Positions 22,148 to 54,428 of a stretch of 64,000 nt of DNA are shown here, piece after piece (within the stretch, counting starts at the first letter, position 1; each line of letters begins with the position of its first letter). The position numbers and the translations under genes are program-made. Under the pieces are notes generated by a model that ran no database searches, had not been told where the DNA came from, and saw only the letters and a program-made list of their open reading frames with translations. The stretch comes from Candidatus Bathyarchaeota archaeon. GTDB lineage: Archaea; Thermoproteota; Bathyarchaeia; 40CM-2-53-6. Where the stretch lies: NCBI GenBank assembly GCA_963833125.1, contig CAWHWX010000001.1, positions 256,001-320,000 on the forward strand, in the 5' to 3' direction.

Positions 22148-23338
22148 GTGACAGCACTTAGAATTTTCTTATGCCTTCCCACGCAAAGTTGTCTTCGGAC
22201 CAAATAGCGTCAACAAGGTCCCAGATGAGGTTACAAGACTCGCCACGCCAAAAGCTCACGTTCTCGTCGTAACCGACAAGACCATTGCGCAAATCGGACT
22301 CTCAAACCGGTTGTCGGCTCCGCTGAAGGATAAGGGGCATGAGGTCGAAGTCTACAGTGAGATTACTGGTGAGCCTGCTCTCGCGACCGCGGAATCAGTC
22401 GCTCAATATGTTAGGGATCGGAAGTTCGATGTTGTCGTTGGATTGGGAGGAGGTAGTTGCATGGACATGGCAAAGATGGGAGCGGTAGCCGCAACTAACC
22501 CTAAACCCATCAAGGAATACATCGCATTCCTGGAAGACCGAATCGAGAACAAGACACTTCCCAAAATTCTGATACCTACAACCGCCGGCACGGGGAGCGA
22601 GGGTACCTCATACGCTGGTAGTTGTTGAGGGCGCATTCAAGAATTTCATGACAAGCCCCTCCGTAGTCGCGGACGTTTCAGTCATCGATCCCGCACTCAT
22701 GGCCTCCTGCCCACCCAAACAAACAGCTGGTAGCGGCCTTGACGCTCTCTCAATGCATAGAACCCTACCTATCCAAGGCCAGCGACATATTCTCCGACAC
22801 CTTCGCGATCAGGGGCATACAGCTGATCTCCAAAAACCTGAAGCAAGCCTACAAACAAGGCGACAACCTAGACGCACGTACGGGAATGGCACTGGGCGCA
22901 TTCTACGGCGGAATAGCAATCAGCACTGCAGCCGGCGTGATCCTGGGACACTGCATATCAGAGACGATCGGTCCCCGCTACAAGATTCCGCACGGACTTG
23001 CTTGTGGCATAGCCCTACCCTACACCGTGAAATTCAACATACCAGCCGCCCCCGAACGAATCGCCTCCCTCCTGCCACTACTGTCCAACGAGAAAGTCAG
23101 AGGCATGAAGGCGAGGGCTAACAAAGTCGTACAAGTTATCAGTAGACTTGTCAAAGAGCTCGGAGTATCTTTGGCGTTGAAGGACTACGGAATCTCCAAG
23201 GAACAGGCCCTAGATGTGGCCAAGTTCATCGCAAACGAACAACAGAAAAACTACGCCCTACCAGATCTAAACCCTAGACCGATCAATGAAACAGGGATGA
23301 ATTCACTCTTCGAGGATATGTGGAAAGGAAAAATCTAG
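22148..23338 (+). CDS. Iron-containing alcohol dehydrogenase (three apparent frameshifts)
   Basis: Joined frames give VVFGP, VVTD, GLGGGSCMDMAK, IPTTAGTGSE, GLDALSQCIE, GHCISE, IPHGLAC. Confidence 0.85.
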
Positions 23339-45404: not shown

Positions 45405-46067
45405 GCTTCTAGAAGATCGATCAGAGTCGGTAGTTCGTTTATTGAACCTAAGAGATAGTCAGGTTCAGTTTTCAGGATCTCGTCCGATTGGAAATGGGCC
45501 AGTGGATACTGCTACGGAGAGCAAGCCTGCAGCTTTAGCAGCCATGATATCGATCACACCGTCTCCAACCAGGATCGTTGCCTCTGTTGAAACGCCCAGT
45601 TGTGCCAGGATTTTCTTAATTGGAGCGCATGCGGGCTTCATCTCTTCACAATCGTCTCTGGTGACGATGGCATCGAAAAACGGTTCAAGGTGATGCCTTT
45701 TGAGAGTTAGTTCCGTGCCGGCTCGACTGTTATTTGTTACTAGCCCAATCTTCAGATGCTTAGAATGCAGTTGCTGCAGCGTTTTCTCGGCGCCTGGGTA
45801 TATGGCAACATCCTCAGCTGCTTTAAGCTCCATTTCCTCGAAGAAGCCATAGAACGTTGAACGTAGCGTCGAGAACTTTTCTGGGTCGCAGTTATCCTTG
45901 AGCTCTTGAAGGATGACGAAGAGGTTGACTTGATCAGTCATATCGGGAGTTCTCAAGCCGAGCTTCTCGAGTTCTCCGAGCGCTCTCCGGCGGGCGGCCA
46001 TATAATCTAAGTTGAATTTGGTGATGGTTCCGTCCATATCGATTATGATCGCTTTGATTTTCAACAA
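45401..46067 (-). CDS. HAD-superfamily phosphatase (frameshift near 45480)
   Basis: DMDGT, VTNN, KP, VGDGVID; C-terminus ILKTEPDYLLGSINEL in a shifted frame. Confidence 0.88.
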
Positions 46068-46788: not shown

Positions 46789-49160
46789 TCATTGTGCTAT
46801 GCTCTTGACTAGCCGATCATAGGCACGTAGTTTCTCAAGCCCCACTTTGATACCGGTTTCGGCGTCGGAAATGGCATGTTTAGTGAAGAAATCTTCAGCT
46901 TCAGAAACCCGGCCAACGCATAAGACTGGGATGATTGACATGAATACCGTTGAGAGGAGCCCCGTGCCCTCGTATAGCTCCCGAAGTTTTCCCATATTAG
47001 ATTTCAACCATTCCCACGCCATATCCCTAACTTCAGGGTTCTTGGTAGCCGCGGATACTACCGAGATAACATCCTGCCGTTTGACTTCGCCGCTGATCGC
47101 AAAGTTCAATGTTCGCTTAACAAGTTCCTCACTAGCGAATGTTGTCATTGACTGCAGAAACTTGATGCGATCCTCATCTGACACACTTTCCCGGTACTTG
47201 CGCGTTAGACCCTCGAGATCGTTGGTTGATCTGGCATAGGCTATGGCCACGGCTAGCCTCATGTCCGGAGGAGTTTTTCCGTAGTCGTTGAATTTGCGGG
47301 CCAATGTAGCCGCGTAGTCTGGATCAATCACGGCCATCCTGCTAGCCAGCGTGCCTTCTAGTATCGAACTCTTTGCGTCAGTGCTATCCTTGAACGTTTC
47401 AAGTAAGCCGTGATGAATCCTCTTCGAAATGTCCAAGATCTTTGGTGGTATGAGACAATATAGTAAGGTGATTTGGTCTGATAACTCCTGAGCGGGTAGT
47501 GTATCGGTCTCCCTCTCGAACTTGGTCAAGGTTGTTAGGTATTCGTTGAAGTTGGTTCTTCCAGAGATGAGAAATAAGAATGCGTCGTGTATTAGTCCCC
47601 ACCGATCGTATGGTGATAGTTTGCTACGCCAGATGATCTCATCGAGGCCTTGGTAGTGGACTACGTAGAACCCGGTGCGGTCAGGGTTTATTCTCAGTGA
47701 ATTCAAATCGTCAACTACAATGTCGTAATTCGAGTCTTCCATGAGAATGCTCTTTTTCTGATTGTTTACTTCGATTATTATCGGGATTGACCATTTTCGC
47801 TTTGCTTTATCTGGGCTCCCCGAAATCAGGAACCTTTCCTGTCTTAGAGTTAGTTTTCCGTCACATTTGGAAACAGCCACTACTGGAAAGCCGGGTTGCT
47901 GTATCCAACTCGACATTATCTTCTGCACTGGCTTCTGAGACGCGCCCTCAATTGCAGACCAAAGATCATCTCCGGTTGCGTTAGCGTAAGCGTGCGCCAA
48001 GAGATATCGTCGCACACCCTCGCGAAAGCCTTGCTCACCAACGAAGCTTTCGATCATTTGGAGCACGTGAGCGCCTTTCCCGTAACTGATCGCGTCGAAA
48101 ATCTGTTCTATCTCATCAGGTGAAGTCACTTTCACTTGAATTGGGTGAGTATTCTCCGTTGAATCCTGTTCCATCGCGCCAGCCAGCGACTCGACCGAAG
48201 GCTCTCCATTGAAGAAACTGGTCCAAATTCCCCATTCAGGATGGACTGAGTCGATGGCTTTGTAGGCCATGAAGGTCGCGAAGCTTTCGTTCAACCAAAT
48301 ATCGTCCCACCACTTCATCGTGACCAGGTCGCCGAACCATTGATGGGCTAATTCGTGGGCAATGGCCATGGCGGAGCGCATCTTCAGCCTATCGCTCGTA
48401 TTCGCGTCGGCTAGAAGTAGTATCTCGCGAAAGGTGATAGCTCCCCAGTTCTCCATCGCTCCCATGGCGAACTCAGGGACAGCGATCAAATGCACTTTTG
48501 GAAGCGCGTATGGTATCTTGTAATATGAGTTGAAAAATTCGATTGCTTTTTGGGCTTCGTTTTCTGCGAAGCCTCCTAGCTTCGTTTTCCCCGGGGTGGT
48601 TGCGAGAATTATGTCTGTTTCTCCAACTTTGGTGGTTTGCGTTTGGAACTTGCCCACTCCTAGGTAGAGTAGGTATGTTGACATTCGTGGAGTCTTCTCG
48701 AACGTTACAATTTTCTTGTCGCCATCCGCCTTTTGGGAGTCTATGGGCATGTTTGAGATTGCTTCTAGATCATTGTCTATTCTCACCGTAAGTTTGAATT
48801 CGGCTTTGACGTCGGGTCGGTCGACGCAGGGAAGCATTCGCCTTGCTTGAGCAGCTTCGAAGTGAGTGGTTACAATATGCGTATTCTCGTAGGAGGCTCT
48901 GTAGATTCCGGCCAGAGAATCCGGAATACGCCCCGAATACTCCACTTGTAAGACCCCATCAAATGCCCCGCTCTCAATCTTCAAGTCATCTTTCTCTTGG
49001 CTAAATCGAAAAGTTTTCGCGTCAGAGCTAACACGAGTTATGTCTAATGCCACAGTGTTCAGGACAATATCCTGATCTGTTTTCAATTTGACGCAAGGGT
49101 TCCGTTGAACTTCAGCCTTGAAAATCCAGATCGATAAGCAAATCGTAACTTGACACTCAA
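46789..49160 (-). CDS. M1 family aminopeptidase (tricorn-interacting factor F2/F3-like); several indels in the first 25 codons
   Basis: THFEA..AR, GAMENWG, HELAHQWFG, WLNESFA, ISYGKG. Confidence 0.93.
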
Positions 49161-49304
49161 AGGATATGACCCAGCTGACCATTGAGTCGGATTTTTTCCC
49201 TAGACTTTCTTTAGACGTGTAGTGTGTTCAACCCTTGAAAATCCAGATCGATAAGCAAATCGTAACTTGACACTTCCATAGGATATGACCCAGCTGACCA
49301 TTGA
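49111..49304. repeat. Imperfect direct repeat of about 75 bp (49111-49185 and 49227-49304) covering the aminopeptidase 5' end
   Basis: CCTTGAAAATCCAGATCGATAAGCAAATCGTAACTTGACACT...AGGATATGACCCAGCTGACCATTGA occurs twice. Confidence 0.95.
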
Positions 49305-49520
49305 AGGCCTGCGCTACCTAATCTTTTTCGCACTAAGACATTTCAGAATATTAGACCGATGATAAGCGTGGGAAGATAGTTCGGTTCCGAATTTATATTT
49401 GCAGTGTTAGACGCAAACGTTTCGATTTATGCGCGAGGCTTCAGCACGGGGGTTTGCATGCCTATGTCAGTTACGTGATACGCTTAACTTCTCGTTTTTC
49501 ATTTTAGTTCACGATGAATT

Positions 49521-49844
49521 ATGTGTAACTACTGCGGCTATGGCTCGTACCCGTACGGGGCCTACTCACAATACCAGAACTATGGCTATCCATCGAACTA
49601 TGCAAGCTATCCTAGCTATTCTAGCTATCCTGGTTTTGGTAGCTATGCTGGCTACGGAAACTACGGCAACTACGGCAATTTCGGCAACTTCGGAAACTAT
49701 GGAAACTACGGTAGCTATGGACTACCTTCAGGTTACGCCTACGGTCCATCCTTTGGGTCCATGGCGTACCCAGCATACTTCGGTGCACCCGGTATTCAGC
49801 GTGGAGAACACAAAGTCGGCAACTGTCTGATGATCTGTCAATAG
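49521..49844 (+). CDS. Tyr/Gly/Asn/Ser-rich low-complexity small protein with terminal Cys pairs
   Basis: Repeat units vary mainly at third codon positions in this frame; T-rich terminator directly after the stop. Confidence 0.75.
   Translation: MCNYCGYGSYPYGAYSQYQNYGYPSNYASYPSYSSYPGFGSYAGYGNYGNYGNFGNFGNYGNYGSYGLPSGYAYGPSFGSMAYPAYFGAPGIQRGEHKVGNCLMICQ
49656..49718 (+). repeat. Seven tandem 9-bp units encoding G-N/S-Y/F
   Basis: ggaaactac ggcaactac ggcaatttc ggcaacttc ggaaactat ggaaactac ggtagctat. Confidence 0.95.
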
Positions 49845-49850
49845 GCCCAC

Positions 49851-49865
49851 CTCTTTTTTTCTTTC
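49851..49865 (+). terminator. Archaeal oligo-T terminator
   Basis: CTCTTTTTTTCTTTC starting 7 bp after the stop of the low-complexity ORF. Confidence 0.65.
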
Positions 49866-49947
49866 AAGTTTTCAATTTCGGCAGCGTTCCAGCGCAAGCC
49901 CTATAGAGCATGGAACGAGTTGAGAACACGGACACACGGCATGAAGT

Positions 49948-49991
49948 TAGCCTAGTGTATAACATAGGCTAGGCACGCCGTCTATAACGGC
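49948..49991. promoter_or_regulatory. Two inverted repeats upstream of the MFS gene (candidate operators)
   Basis: TAGCCTA-gtgtataaca-TAGGCTA and GCCGT-ctata-ACGGC. Confidence 0.45.
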
Positions 49992-50025
49992 CACCTGCCA
50001 AGAGACTCGACGGCGAAACATCCTC

Positions 50026-51288
50026 ATGAGCAACCAAGACTCACACCGCTCACGCGATGCGGGCCTCTTGATCGGCGCGATGGGTCTAAACTCCCTACCC
50101 TACGGATTCACACTCGTCGTACTGCCAATCTACCTCAGCACTATCGGATTCTCAAGCCAAGTAATCGGTTATGTGACATCAATATCTTCCATAGCCAACA
50201 CGATCGCACTCATTCCCTTCGCCATTGCAGCGGATCGATATGGAAGGAAAGTATTCGTTCTTTTGGGCTTCCTTTCAGCCACCCCAGCTTACCTCTTTTC
50301 GTGTTCACACGGGATCTCAATTCATTATTGTTAGCGAGCGCGATCGGCGGTGTAGGACTTGCTGGAGGATTCAGCGCCGCCGTATGGACACCCGCGTGGA
50401 CAGCGTTGCTGGCCGAGAAGGCCCCCGCATGAGAAGAGGACAAGAGCCTTCGCATGGTCTCAAGGGATATGGACGATTGCGCTTACCGTAGGTTCAGCAA
50501 TGAGCGTAGTCCCCTACCTTCTCCGAAGCCAGCTCCACGTAACCTTCGGGCCGTCGTTTGAGTATACCTTCCTAATCTTCGCGTTGCTTTCATCGTCTCA
50601 GGGTTGGCTATCTTGCCAATTGGCGAGAGGCGAGCAACGAGAGTAGCCTCAAATGGAATAAGTTCGAAGAGTTTGCTACATTCAAAATCCAGAATGCAAA
50701 TTGCAAAGTTCTCAGTGACTATAGGACTGGTTGGCTTTGCGTCAGGCCTTGGGATTCAATTGCTTTCGCTTTGGTTCAATAAGATGTATGGAACTAGCGA
50801 AACCGTCTTAGGGCCTTGGTTTGCAGCGGCCGAAGCGACTTCACTGATAGTCATCCCGATCGTCCCAAGACTGGCGGGGAGTTTAGGTAGTCCAAGGAGC
50901 GCGTTTCTCACCCAAGCCGCTATCGGCCCTCCTCCTGATGTCGATGATCTTTGCTCCAACCTACGAGGTCGCGGCTATGCTCTTGGTCGCGCGAAACTTC
51001 TTCATGAATGCGTCATGGCCCATTCAGCAATCATACCTCATGGGCACCGTGAGTCCTAAGGAGCGGGCGTCTGCATCAGCCATAACATATACAGTCTGGG
51101 GAGTTGGGAGTTCCATTAGCCCGATTCTGGCAGGTTACTTCCTTAGCGGTACGAGTTTCATTTCGATTTCTGCTCCCGTCGCACTCGGAGGCGCGATCTA
51201 TCTCGCTTCCTCGATTAGCTTCTACTACTTCTTCCGAAATATTGCTCCGCCAGAAGAAAAGCTGCTGTTCAGGAGAGGAACCTCTTAG
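50026..51288 (+). CDS. MFS transporter (about four frameshifts)
   Basis: Motif A AADRYGRK, WTALLAE, WPIQQSYLMG..SPKERASAS across consecutive frames. Confidence 0.85.
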
Positions 51289-51713
51289 GGCGCCAGCGTC
51301 AGGCTTTGGGTTGAGACAAGTTTCTTGCCGTCCCAACGGAACCCTAACTCCTGTAGCTCTTGGAAGAACCAGTTGAGGTTTTCCTTGGGTTCATGGAACT
51401 TGTTGAGTACTTGTCCTATGACGTAGCCTAGGAATGAGGCGAAGATTTCCTTGTTCCCTTTGTAGAGTCGATCAAGGAATATGGATAGTCGGTCGATTTC
51501 GTAGTCGCCGGTAACAACTTCACTGTACACCTTGTTCCAAGAGTCTTCCAGGTTGAATTGGCGTACTGTTTCGCGCATGTAGGGGAAAAGGTCGGTGAAG
51601 TATTCCCTCATCATTCCTTGCGATCGAAATACCGCCTGAACCAGACGCCTAATTCTCATGTCAACTTCCGGAATGCCGCTCACGGTTATCGAACCTGTCC
51701 GCTTAGAGGCCAA
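51285..51713 (-). CDS. Hypothetical protein
   Basis: 142-aa ORF with protein-like composition, co-oriented with the upstream genes. Confidence 0.65.
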   Translation of the reverse strand: MASKRTGSITVSGIPEVDMRIRRLVQAVFRSQGMMREYFTDLFPYMRETVRQFNLEDSWNKVYSEVVTGDYEIDRLSIFLDRLYKGNKEIFASFLGYVIGQVLNKFHEPKENLNWFFQELQELGFRWDGKKLVSTQSLTLAP

Positions 51714-51733: not shown

Positions 51734-53031
51734 CTAAGAGTAGATTTCCTTCAGCATATCCTTCATTACTTTATCCACACCGCGAGGCTCGACCTGACCA
51801 TCCTCGGTAATGTAACTCGAAACAGACTCTGCTGGAGTCAAGTCAAAGAGATCCTGTGGGATTGCGGGGCGTTCTCCAAGTAAATCCTGTGCGCTGAATT
51901 TTGTCGTTTCGCATGAGCTGTATAATGGTATCCCGAGTTTTTTGGCCGCGATTGCGATGTTTTTCGTTCCCGTTTTGTGAATTAGAGATCCGTCTTTGAG
52001 CACGCTGTCCGTCCCAACCAAAACAAGGTTCGCTCGTGGGATGATTGAGTCTACGATCGAGTCGGCTATGAGCCTCACAGGAACGCCTAGGGCTATCAAG
52101 TCCTTTGCGAGCTGTTTGCCTTCCATTCCTGGATAGGATTCGGTGGCGAAAACTTGGAAAGTCTTTCCGCTCTTGAAGCCTAACTCTAGCGATCTTAGGA
52201 CGGTGGTGCTGTAGCTGTGGGTGAGCACGACGCCATCCTGAGGGAGAATATGTGCTGTATTTCGGGACGCATCCTCGGAAGCCGCGGCAGCTTCTTTCAG
52301 AATCTGCTGACTGAACTCTCTGACGCGAGTCTTTAGTTCATTTACCGAGGAAACTGTCCCACTCTCTCGATCGACGACCTGCAGTAGTTTTCCGGTGAGG
52401 TTCCACACATTGGCCATTGCTGGCTGGGCTCTTCGTAGTTTTGAGAAGACTAGTAGGAGATGATAGAGTAAAGCGTCCGTATCTTTGGCATCTGAGGCCT
52501 GGGCGGTCGCTGACAACAACTCTAGGGCTCGGCGGCCGAGGAAGTTTGCTCCATGAACTCTGTCACTCGACACTTCCTCTATCCCACGTAGGATTCCTGC
52601 GAGTGATTCGGGAGTTGCTTGGAAATCGTAGCGTACGCGATCGTAGGCCGCTTTCAGTTTAGGTACAGTCTCGTAGGACGCTAGGCTGCTTCGGTTCGAT
52701 CCACCGGTATTCGCTGTTCTCCCAATCAAGTCGGACCGTGCTAGATTTTGTTTCAAATAGGAAAGGGTGGATCACCCATACAGTGTCGATTCCCTCTTCA
52801 AAGTCGCGAAGGATCTCCCCCTCACTTAGCAGGTTGATCTGGTTGGCGGAGAAGCCCCACCTCCTCCCGTATCTCAGTCATGGCACGTGTAAGCGGTTGC
52901 TCGTCTCCCTCAAGATATCCGCTAACTGCTGACCATTGACCTCTATAGGTTCCAACCTTCTGGCTGCGGCGTAGAAGGAGAATTCTTTGATCCTTTGTGA
53001 GAAAGGAGGTGACGACTTGCTTGTAATTCAA
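51734..53031 (-). CDS. NUDIX hydrolase fused to an eIF-2B alpha/beta/delta-like domain (two frameshifts)
   Basis: SGYLE...A.TEIREEVGL Nudix box; LDWEN.EYRWI and YETVPKL continue into RVHGA, LTHSYS, TESYPGMEG, VGTD. Confidence 0.8.
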
Positions 53032-53062: not shown

Positions 53063-54428
53063 TTATTTCTTGAGTGGGTCCACTTGTGGCTTGGAGGTTT
53101 TCAGTCTGTCCCAGAGTTTCGCAGCAGCAGCCTGCGCTAAAGATTGTGCCTTATCCTCGTCGAAGGTAACGAGTTTCTTGTTTTTGACGATTGGTTTTCC
53201 TTCGACGAGGACTGTTTCCACGTCGTCCCCATCTACCGTGTTGATCAGATGTCCGACGACGCTGCTCGCGTTGAGCGGTGTGGGGAGGATGGTTGGTTTG
53301 ATTAGGATGATGTCAGCCTTCTTCCCAGGCTCGATTGAGCCAACCTCCTTTCCCATCCCATAGAGTCCGGCCCCATTTACTGTCGCCATTTCGAGAATTG
53401 TGTATGGGTCGATGGCGTTAGGATTCTTGTGGTAGACTCTGTGTAGTAGGAAGGCTGCTCGCATGTTCTCGAACATGTCGAAGATGTAACCGTCGTTTCC
53501 TAACCCCACTCTCACGTTGTGCTTCAGCATTTGAAGAAGGGGCGCAACGCCAACGGCGTTTAGCATGTTACTCATGGGGTTATGTGCAACCCCGGTGTCC
53601 GTTTCCGCGAGAATGCCGATCTCCTTCTCATCGAGATTGACACAATGCGCAAGAACAACATCAGGGCCTAGCAATCCCACGTCGCGCAGACGTTCTACCG
53701 TTCGTTTGCCATAATTCTCCAGATTGTGATGCACATCCCCTAACCCTTCTGACGCGTGAATCGTGATAGGGGCGTGATATTTTTGGGCAAGCTGCTTGAC
53801 GCGACGTATGAGCCCGTCGGAGACTGTGAATGAAGCATGGATGCTGAAGAGCGGCCTTGCCTTACTCTCAGGTTTCACCTTCTCCGCGAACCGAACGTTC
53901 TCCTGAACCCCATTAGCCCCTTCCTCTGCTGAGTGGCGCTCGGTTGCTTCGAAAGAAATGAACCCCCTAATTCCGATCTCCCCAACCGCCCTCGCGATAT
54001 GGTCGAGAACGCCGGAGATCGAGTTAGGGCCGGAGTATGTGTCGGCGAAAGTAGTTACGCCAGATTTCGCGAACTCCAGACAGGCGACGAGAGCGCTCGC
54101 GTATGCGTCTTCAAAATTCATCGCCTCATCAACGGGCCACCAGACTCGCTGGAGGATTTGAGTGAACTCGGAAGGTGGGTCTATGTTGAGAGATGCGCCC
54201 CGTAACAACATGCCGTAAAGATGGGAGTGACTGCAGACTATCCCGGGCATTACGATTCGGCCTGTGGGCGTCGATAATCTCGGCCCGCCCGTGTTTCTTC
54301 TCTAGGTTCGCAGTCTTATCGACTTCAACAACTCGACCCGCTTCAACGGCTACGGCGTGATCTTCTAGAATTCTCCGGTGCTTGTCCATCGTGACTAGAA
54401 CGCCATTCTTTATGAGTAGATCAACCAA
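53063..54428 (-). CDS. Metal-dependent amidohydrolase, SsnA/deaminase-like (frameshift near 54270)
   Basis: MPGIVCSHSHLY, F..IL..WW..D, IHASE, LAHCV, HNPMSNMLNAVG, GNDG. Confidence 0.85.

Follow-up and report, generated by a model that had tools for sequence, protein, structure and literature searches.

Of the sequences that drive protein condensation in eukaryotes, those of low complexity that lack charge and are rich in aromatic residues are best understood; in archaea, they are known mainly from predictions, as domains of larger proteins. In the sticker-and-spacer domains of the FUS/hnRNPA1 type, Tyr and Phe residues are regularly spaced among Gly, Ser, Asn, and Gln residues, almost no charge is present, and the chain is disordered. 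Metallothioneins are rich in Cys (commonly 15-30%) and contain few or no aromatic residues. Candidate prion domains of archaea are known from a survey with PLAAC, and those positive in assays are rich in Tyr and Phe, according to the part of the survey considered here (10.1101/2020.07.20.212902). Here we analyze a small Tyr-rich protein encoded in a 64,000-nucleotide stretch of DNA from Candidatus Bathyarchaeota archaeon (assembly GCA_963833125.1, contig CAWHWX010000001.1, positions 256,001 to 320,000), which we call the window and whose numbering we use throughout. The coding sequence lies at 49521..49844 on the + strand. The whole protein is a low-complexity sequence that is under selection over two genera. 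Its end modules are conserved, as is the architecture of its promoter, and its enzyme partner is fixed.

The small protein and its gene

The open reading frame (ORF) starts with ATG and encodes 107 residues followed by a stop codon. The protein contains 23 Tyr, 22 Gly, 12 Ser, 10 Asn, 8 Pro, 5 Phe, and 4 Cys residues, with Cys at positions 2, 5, 102, and 106 and His at position 97. Asp, Glu, Lys, and Arg are absent from residues 1-93, and the earliest charged residue is Arg94. The aromatic residues are closely spaced, with 19 of the 27 aromatic-to-aromatic spacings being exactly three. When the six-frame ORFs with 60 or more residues in its own 3.07-Mb genome (7288 in total) are ranked by Tyr fraction, this ORF comes 4th. 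The numbers of Tyr and Phe residues, the lack of charge in the first 93 residues, the CNYC start, and the HKVGNCLMIC tail agree with an earlier description of this DNA (hereafter the initial annotation).

The initial annotation likened the composition of the protein to [G/S]Y[G/S] prion-like domains. The strict motif occurs only 4 times in the window copy (0-4 times in the five relatives counted), and a looser pattern of a small residue, an aromatic residue, and a small residue occurs 24 times. Repeats of the strict motif mark the FUS type of such domains, and the type scored by PLAAC has a Gln/Asn-rich core of 60 residues or more. The charge depletion and predicted disorder of prion-like or FUS-like low-complexity domains are both present. 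AlphaFold2 was run twice on family alignments, one with 35 rows and one with 65, and gave a mean predicted local distance difference test (pLDDT) score of 48.4 and 48.0 and a predicted template modeling score of 0.10, and neither run contained secondary structure or a confident fold. No hydrophobic stretch was found in the 107 residues. The best 19-residue Kyte-Doolittle mean is 0.29, and the protein therefore has no signal peptide or membrane helix, as the initial annotation had stated for the signal peptide. Thus, the small protein is without signal peptide, membrane segment, or predicted fold, and the uncharged, aromatic-rich chain noted earlier is further predicted to be disordered (pLDDT 48).

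Several lines of evidence show that the ORF at 49521-49844 is a true gene, which encodes a protein under purifying selection and whose sequence is present in RNA libraries. Third codon positions vary within the ORF (13 TAC and 10 TAT codons for Tyr, and four Gly codons in use). Nei-Gojobori ratios of nonsynonymous to synonymous substitution rates (dN/dS) are 0.06-0.50 in 15 of 16 pairs, with the remaining pair saturated. Within the last 15 codons, synonymous changes abound (CGT/CGC, four Gly codons, TGT/TGC, CTA/CTG/TTG, ATC/ATA, and CAA/CAG), but the encoded residues stay the same. We also found 11 pieces of RNA contigs over 49572-49880, which are 90-100% identical to the window and contain no indels; they derive from a single study of peat, in which four metatranscriptome runs gave such contigs. 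We note that contigs from a single study show the presence of the sequence in RNA libraries, not its level or the transcript ends. Four of the 11 pieces reach 49847-49880, from which the true 3′ end is not deducible, and the four runs gave no contig cover at 48800-49571 and 49881-50600, which has no bearing on the expression or transcript ends of these regions. An overlapping 133-residue frame (49429-49830) and a spurious ORF were considered as alternatives and rejected, as the conserved ends and dN/dS below 1 are found only in the 107-residue frame. The initial annotation had also taken the gene to be real, a view that would have fallen with neither homologs nor expression; homologs, RNA-library contigs, dN/dS, the gene's own promoter, and a T run behind the gene now agree with it.

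Conserved ends and a variable middle

Alignments of the family (A1, A2, and A4) define four parts of the protein. Counts of the end motifs below are over 33 copies, and the conservation of the C-terminus is over 35 sequences. The N-terminal Met-Cys motif, MCNYCG in the window copy (49521..49538, + strand), varies in the family as MCxxCG, MSYCGCG, MCQCGCC, and other forms. Residues 1-12 include two or more Cys in 29 of the 33 copies, one Cys in one copy, and none in three copies from the sister genus. The middle chain is variable in length (40-80 residues), almost uncharged, and rich in Tyr (10-29%) and Pro (7-25%). Among the 21 orthologs, the Tyr content is 14-29%. Asp, Glu, Lys, and Arg are absent before the RGE motif in 16 of the 21 orthologs. 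The third part is YGLPSGYAY at residues 66-74 (49716..49742, + strand). In the family form of this motif, YGLPxGY(A/V)Y, Tyr72 and Tyr74 are invariant, and Tyr66, Gly67, and Pro69 are nearly invariant (alignment A2).

The C-terminal module RGEHKVGNCLMICQ (residues 94-107; 49800..49841, + strand) follows a near-invariant consensus, RGE(H/Y)x(V/I)GNCLMICQ, directly before the stop codon. Arg94, Gly95, Gly100, and Cys102 are invariant, and Glu96, Asn101, Leu103, Met104, Ile105, Cys106, and Gln107 are at least 90% conserved, and synonymous codon variants are numerous in the module. A C-x3-C pair is present in 30 of 33 copies, with the second Cys missing in the other three, and the copies carry 2-8 Cys residues in total. 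The Cys-clasped ends of the initial annotation thus stand as conserved Cys-bearing ends, but not as a feature of every copy.

The most FUS-like part of the window copy is of a different nature. The run of GNY and GNF triplets is encoded by a 9-nt tandem repeat of 6.7 copies (49652..49711, + strand), as detected by Tandem Repeats Finder. G[NS][YF] motifs number nine in the window copy and six in its closest relative (L022), and at most one is found in each of the other 31 copies. These other copies are rich in Tyr and Pro, or Tyr, Pro, and Ala, with irregular aromatic spacing. Since the repeat is present in only two of 33 copies and its copy number differs between them, the FUS-like look is a recent lengthening of the sticker/spacer region rather than the core of the function. 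The GNY/GNF periodicity can therefore not be the defining feature that the initial annotation had made of it.

These data bear on whether the protein may be a true prion or functional amyloid, that is, a heritable self-templating switch, of the kind demonstrated for some candidate prion domains of archaea, with VGNCLMICQ or the GNY run as its zipper core. Tyr, Gly, Asn, Ser, and Gln make up 66% of the window copy, which together with the disorder fits such a switch, as does the enrichment in Tyr and Phe among the assay-positive archaeal domains of the survey cited above, as far as its considered part goes. However, Asn and Gln account for only 13% of the window copy and 1-19% across the family. 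Most copies are also Pro-rich, and proline disfavors amyloid. We therefore consider an amyloid switch very unlikely.

An undescribed family in two genera

A search of 5.8 billion proteins with the single sequence gave one close relative (81% identity) and three partial matches, P0002-P0004. When related genomes were searched in six frames, 19 of the 22 genomes of its own genus proved to contain open frames that end in the same C-terminal sequence. With a profile built from 16 orthologs, members of the family were detected in 20 of these 22 genomes and in 3 of 10 from a second genus, whereas 26 genomes from three further genera of the same taxonomic family gave none. A deeper profile of 65 rows, run over the order, gave 20 of 22 and 7 of 10 genomes in these two genera and none of 72 genomes from 23 other genera. 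One further copy in the second genus (genome G080) was missed by the profile and found by ORF listing, raising the count to 8 of 10. The two genomes of its own genus without a match are G010 and G017. In G010, only 14 bp separate the syntenic NUDIX-IF2B gene from the end of its contig, and in G017, this gene is missing as well; the apparent lack of the family in both is probably due to gaps in the assemblies.

When 1.84 billion representative proteins were searched exhaustively with HMMER, 26 proteins were returned, 25 of which share the small-protein architecture. The 26th is a 4303-residue protein (E 1.3e-4), and no fusion of the small protein to a known domain was found in this pass. The 57 clusters at 90% identity contain no Pfam domain and are unnamed or labeled "hypothetical protein", except for one Joint Genome Institute label (heme/copper-type oxidase subunit 1). 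Among the clusters, three NCBI entries are labeled Candidatus Bathyarchaeia archaeon and one is labeled as an Acidoferrales metagenome-assembled genome. Searches with the small protein gave only Collagen in Pfam (E 0.23), only the precursor family HxsA4 in NCBIfam, under its cut-off and with no curated family reached, and one chance-level hit with nothing relevant in a PDB profile search. The best ESM Atlas score was 0.78, to an unnamed cluster, and a literature search for Bathyarchaeia together with "tyrosine-rich" gave no paper. On the basis of this search, the unnamed database entries, and the lack of a matching Pfam or NCBIfam family, we regard the family as undescribed; its range is limited to two genera, both from a single family of uncultured archaea.

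Up to four copies are found per genome. The paralogs keep the promoter blocks described below and both end motifs, and their middle is more charged.

The NCBIfam match raises the question of whether the protein is the precursor of a peptide that is made on the ribosome and modified after translation. An enzyme encoded elsewhere would then cross-link Tyr or Cys residues, as triceptide-like aromatic-x-Asn cyclophanes in the window copy or as Cys/Tyr links, and the C-terminus would be a "follower" for recognition. Such a precursor could have the conserved ends and variable middle seen here, the YGN and FGN triplets of the window copy, and the peptidase (M1 or M20) that lies upstream in part of the loci. 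The match itself, to the His-Xaa-Ser repeat precursor HxsA4 (NF038313, E 4.3e-4), reaches 21.1 bits against a cut-off of 55 bits, and the triplet repeats occur in only 2 of 33 copies. No radical SAM, YcaO, P450, lanthionine, or MNIO family is encoded among the 63 ORFs of the window or the conserved neighbors, in line with the initial annotation, which had seen no modifying enzyme nearby. P450, YcaO, and MbnB/DUF692 were also not found in its own genome (88% complete), and the single SPASM radical SAM gene of this genome is 52 kb away in a heme-synthesis cluster. Taken together, these results make a modified peptide highly improbable. The SPASM gene (G000:C1:253148-254311, - strand) lies 1.7 kb before the window start, amid heme-synthesis-like genes that we identified by eye from their N-terminal sequences, and it is likely an alternative heme-pathway enzyme unrelated to the small protein. 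Tyrosinase (PF00264) gave no match, but the control genomes gave none either, and this negative therefore carries no weight.

The partial matches P0002-P0004 come from other organisms and are about 100 residues long. Their tail, NFGNYGNYGN(V/A)GNYGNPGNYGS..(L/I)..SGY, is much like residues 46-72 of the window protein, which may reflect convergence or a shared module. We rejected them as family members, as the shared part is just the stretch NFGNYGNYGN...GNYGS..LPSGY behind an unrelated N-terminus, and NCBIfam gave nothing for them.

Other small Tyr-rich ORFs are present in the same genome, at G000:C4:168652-168834 and C4:156844-157041 on the - strand and at C10:4692-4916, C17:35578-35805, and C12:32372-32599 (+ strand for C10 and C12). 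They form families of their own, found in 6 of 22 and 7 of 22 members of the genus. The first is a 60-residue type (MSCVCVC...YPYYW, 6 of 22), and the second is a 65-75-residue type (MSMSYYQPP...YRVQ, 7 of 22), which is also present in both of two genomes from another genus of the order. In genomes G002 and G013, members of different Tyr-rich families lie 4-6 kb apart. The lineage thus uses small Tyr-rich proteins repeatedly. In addition, a 243-residue ORF at locus L002 (G000:C32:10375-11106, - strand) begins with a hydrophobic N-terminal part and contains GNYGNYGNY over a long run, a tripeptide repeat also present in the window copy; the encoded protein may be located at the surface.

Upstream blocks and downstream region

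Three sequence blocks lie within 125 nt upstream of the gene and are common to orthologs and to paralogs at unrelated loci (alignment A3). Block A (49398..49418, + strand; -123..-103 from the ATG) is dyad-like, TTTGC-N11-GCAAA. This dyad is kept in orthologs and in paralogs at other loci, and 23 of the 33 upstream regions contain a pattern of the TTGC..GCAA type. Block A is a candidate transcription-factor site. Block B (49440..49462, + strand; -81..-59) reads TTCnGCAyG-N7-(A/G)CAyG. Block C, GATACGCTTAACTT (49477..49490, + strand; -44..-31 from the ATG), with the family form GATACGCTTAAyTT, has a CTTAA core that is invariant or nearly so, and a TATA-like pattern is present in 32 of 33 upstream regions. 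From what is generally known of archaeal promoters, we take block C to be a TFB-recognition and TATA-like element (BRE/TATA). When a profile of blocks A-C was run with nhmmer against its own genome, it matched its own promoter (E 4.8e-15) and one weak intragenic site, and no regulon sharing the blocks emerged from this search. Rfam gave no match on 49150-50050 at E values up to 1. From these patterns, we infer that the small gene probably has a dedicated, factor-controlled promoter.

Ten nucleotides after the stop codon is a run of seven T residues (49854..49860, + strand), in agreement with the oligo-T terminator of the initial annotation. This run is likely an archaeal terminator. A run of at least five T residues is found within 60 nt of the stop codon in 11 of 33 copies. 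Past the terminator, at 49886-49905 and at the matching place in relatives, there is a conserved AGCGCAAGCyCTATAG-like stretch, which precedes the MFS gene in several loci and may be the promoter of that gene.

The MFS transporter gene (50026..51288, + strand) is a frequent and dispensable downstream neighbor. It lies directly downstream of the small gene in 14 of 21 orthologous loci, in the same direction, and its ortholog (at least 58% identity) is confined to the genus of the window. This arrangement invites the idea of a regulatory leader or arrest peptide, in which translation of the Tyr-rich ORF and a C-terminal arrest sequence would control the MFS gene, and five copies indeed have no T run between the two genes. 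Yet the T7 run separates them in the window, six genomes that keep the small gene have no MFS ortholog, and the paralogs and sister-genus copies are followed by other or convergent genes. Moreover, the N-terminal motif and the entire chain are under purifying selection. A leader peptide is thus extremely unlikely.

The HAD-IA hydrolase gene as a constant neighbor

The 63 ORFs of the window encode peptidases, permeases, amidohydrolases, and molybdenum hydroxylases. Across the 21 orthologous loci, the gene order is a HAD hydrolase (-), variable inserts, the small gene (+), the MFS transporter (+), a protein of 127-142 residues (-), NUDIX-IF2B (-), and an amidohydrolase (-). The inserts between the HAD gene and the small gene include flavin reductase, M1 or M20 peptidase, and PNPOx-like genes; in the window, a Peptidase_M1 gene (46789-49182, - strand) flanks the small gene. 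The gene for the 142-residue protein of the window (51285-51713, - strand), which belongs to no family, is convergent to the small gene or the MFS gene in 19 of 21 orthologous loci. Orthologs of this 127-142-residue neighbor were not found in five genomes of other genera, and ESM Atlas gave only unnamed clusters for it.

The initial annotation had named an aminopeptidase and an MFS transporter as the flanks. Neither is constant, and the constant partner, which had escaped that annotation, is the gene of a HAD-IA hydrolase, a phosphatase-type enzyme (45468..46067, - strand; Pfam HAD_2, E 2.5e-30). Its ortholog is found in 20 of 22 genomes of the genus of the window and 8 of 10 of the second genus, and in none of the 22, 3, and 1 genomes (g2, g3, and g4) of the three further genera. 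It is on the same contig as the small gene and divergent to it in 28 of 28 genomes, 256-3454 bp away (16 at less than 800 bp), and G080 is a 29th case. Identity between the HAD proteins of one genus and those of the other is just 45-48%, and the genera also differ in their remaining neighbors. All catalytic motifs of the HAD proteins are invariant (alignment A6). The best solved relatives are phosphoglycolate phosphatases, a pyrophosphatase, and beta-phosphoglucomutase, and no NCBIfam equivalog reaches its cut-off. The persistence of this pairing is the best functional lead. Because these genomes are related and thus do not count as independent cases, the pairing may have arisen once, by gain of a two-gene locus.

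These observations lead to the main rival of the mechanism proposed below, in which the C-terminal 15-mer would be a short linear motif for binding a single conserved partner, and the divergent HAD-IA phosphatase is the strongest candidate for this role. The Tyr- and Ser-Pro-rich chain would then be a tether or regulator, or a phosphorylated substrate that the phosphatase resets. The narrow distribution shared by the two genes, the divergent pair in every genome counted, its survival despite the divergence of the HAD proteins and of the other neighbors, the invariant catalytic motifs, and the conservation of the C-terminal block as a whole, with its hydrophobic residues, are all consistent with docking. 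However, the HAD protein is of the capped small-molecule type, with all equivalogs below cut-off as noted, and one to three other genes intervene in 12 of the 28 genomes. The paralogs have no HAD gene nearby and still retain the C-terminal motif, and a single gain in related genomes could account for the co-occurrence. On balance, we judge docking to the phosphatase unlikely. The precursor, amyloid, and leader readings discussed above are less likely still, and the remaining probability belongs to something not yet thought of.

Several neighboring genes have broken reading frames. Compared with intact relatives, the MFS gene (50026-51288) is split over frames 1-3-1 (intact MFS proteins have 421-423 residues), the NUDIX-IF2B gene over three frames, and the amidohydrolase gene over two. 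The Fe-ADH gene is split into two ORFs, and the HAD ORF is about 25 residues short at its C-terminus. Apart from the MFS gene, the affected places are 51734-53025, 53063-54425, and 22311-23335, and possibly 45468-46067. This run of frame breaks points to indel errors in the assembly rather than pseudogenes. Amid these neighbors, the small ORF is intact and agrees with the RNA contigs.

A proposed sticker protein with a Cys clasp

We tentatively favor the view that the small protein is a cytoplasmic, disordered, self-associating tyrosine "sticker" protein, which its conserved Cys-bearing ends clasp or cross-link in a manner that depends on metal or redox state, and we regard this as a real possibility that falls short of being probable. 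According to this proposal, the disordered chain would self-associate in the cytoplasm through its many tyrosines. The conserved ends would supply four thiolates together with His97 and Met104, and the thiolates may bind a soft metal or form disulfides, closing one chain into a loop or cross-linking several chains. Assembly would therefore be metal- or redox-dependent. Through the upstream dyad, a dedicated transcription factor could switch the small gene on, probably together with the phosphatase gene.

Several points weigh against this proposal. Because N-terminal Cys residues are missing from the sister-genus copies, and the second C-terminal Cys is missing from 3 of 33 copies, a clasp of four Cys residues cannot be a universal mechanism. 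The C-x3-C pair is not a classical zinc knuckle, and AlphaFold2 brings the ends into no confident structure. Conservation of all eight residues of GNCLMICQ is more suggestive of a specific surface for docking or packing than of loose metal ligands. The sticker and clasp leave the pairing with the HAD gene unexplained, and the RNA support comes from contigs of one study only. We note that self-association, condensates, metal binding, disulfides, and the resulting switch are what we infer.

A broader reading, which we consider quite unlikely, is that soil and peat Bathyarchaeia possess a lineage-specific toolkit of stand-alone, Tyr-based phase-separating proteins. The present family would be its regulated core scaffold, condensing or gelling when the Cys ends are bridged by metal or oxidized, and being reset via the co-inherited HAD phosphatase. 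If so, it would be a prokaryotic single-gene counterpart of the eukaryotic condensates of prion-like domains, with a built-in redox or metal switch.

Significance and comparison with known systems

The family offers a compact and testable system, with proteins of 65-110 residues, natural spacer variants (Gly/Asn, Pro, and Ala), and two short conserved motifs to mutate. It opens the question of sticker-driven assembly in archaea and of its gating by metal or redox state. The family is also a clade marker for uncultured Bathyarchaeia, and the pairing with the HAD gene is a first functional handle on it. If the small protein turns out to be an ordinary soluble partner of a phosphatase, it would still represent a new family of small proteins with a defined docking motif.

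Among known systems, metallothioneins differ in composition, as the small protein has only 4 Cys in 107 residues (3.7%) and is 26% aromatic. In a zinc-ribbon or rubredoxin-type Cys4 site, two CxxC(G) knuckles come together within a fold. The CNYCG sequence fits such a knuckle, but the C-terminal pair is C-x3-C, the sister genus has no N-terminal pair, and no confident fold is predicted. The precursors of the triceptide/HxsA type (NF038313), as far as the partial description considered here goes, resemble the small protein in having three-residue aromatic-x-polar repeats in a short peptide and in the weak profile match. They differ from it in that the match stays at 21.1 bits of the 55 needed, no radical SAM/SPASM partner is nearby, and the repeats are not conserved in the family.

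The candidate prion domains of the archaeal survey are, like the small protein, archaeal, disordered, of low complexity, and enriched in Tyr and Phe. In the part of the survey considered, these domains are Gln/Asn-rich and reside inside larger annotated proteins, whereas the small protein stands alone, contains 13% Asn and Gln, is Pro-rich in most members, and has Cys-bearing ends. With the FUS/hnRNPA1 type, the small protein shares spaced aromatic residues, near-zero charge, and predicted disorder. However, it has only four strict [G/S]Y[G/S] motifs, regular spacing in just 2 of 33 copies, and no RNA-binding or other folded domain, and its conserved terminal motifs have no counterpart in domains of the FUS/hnRNPA1 type.

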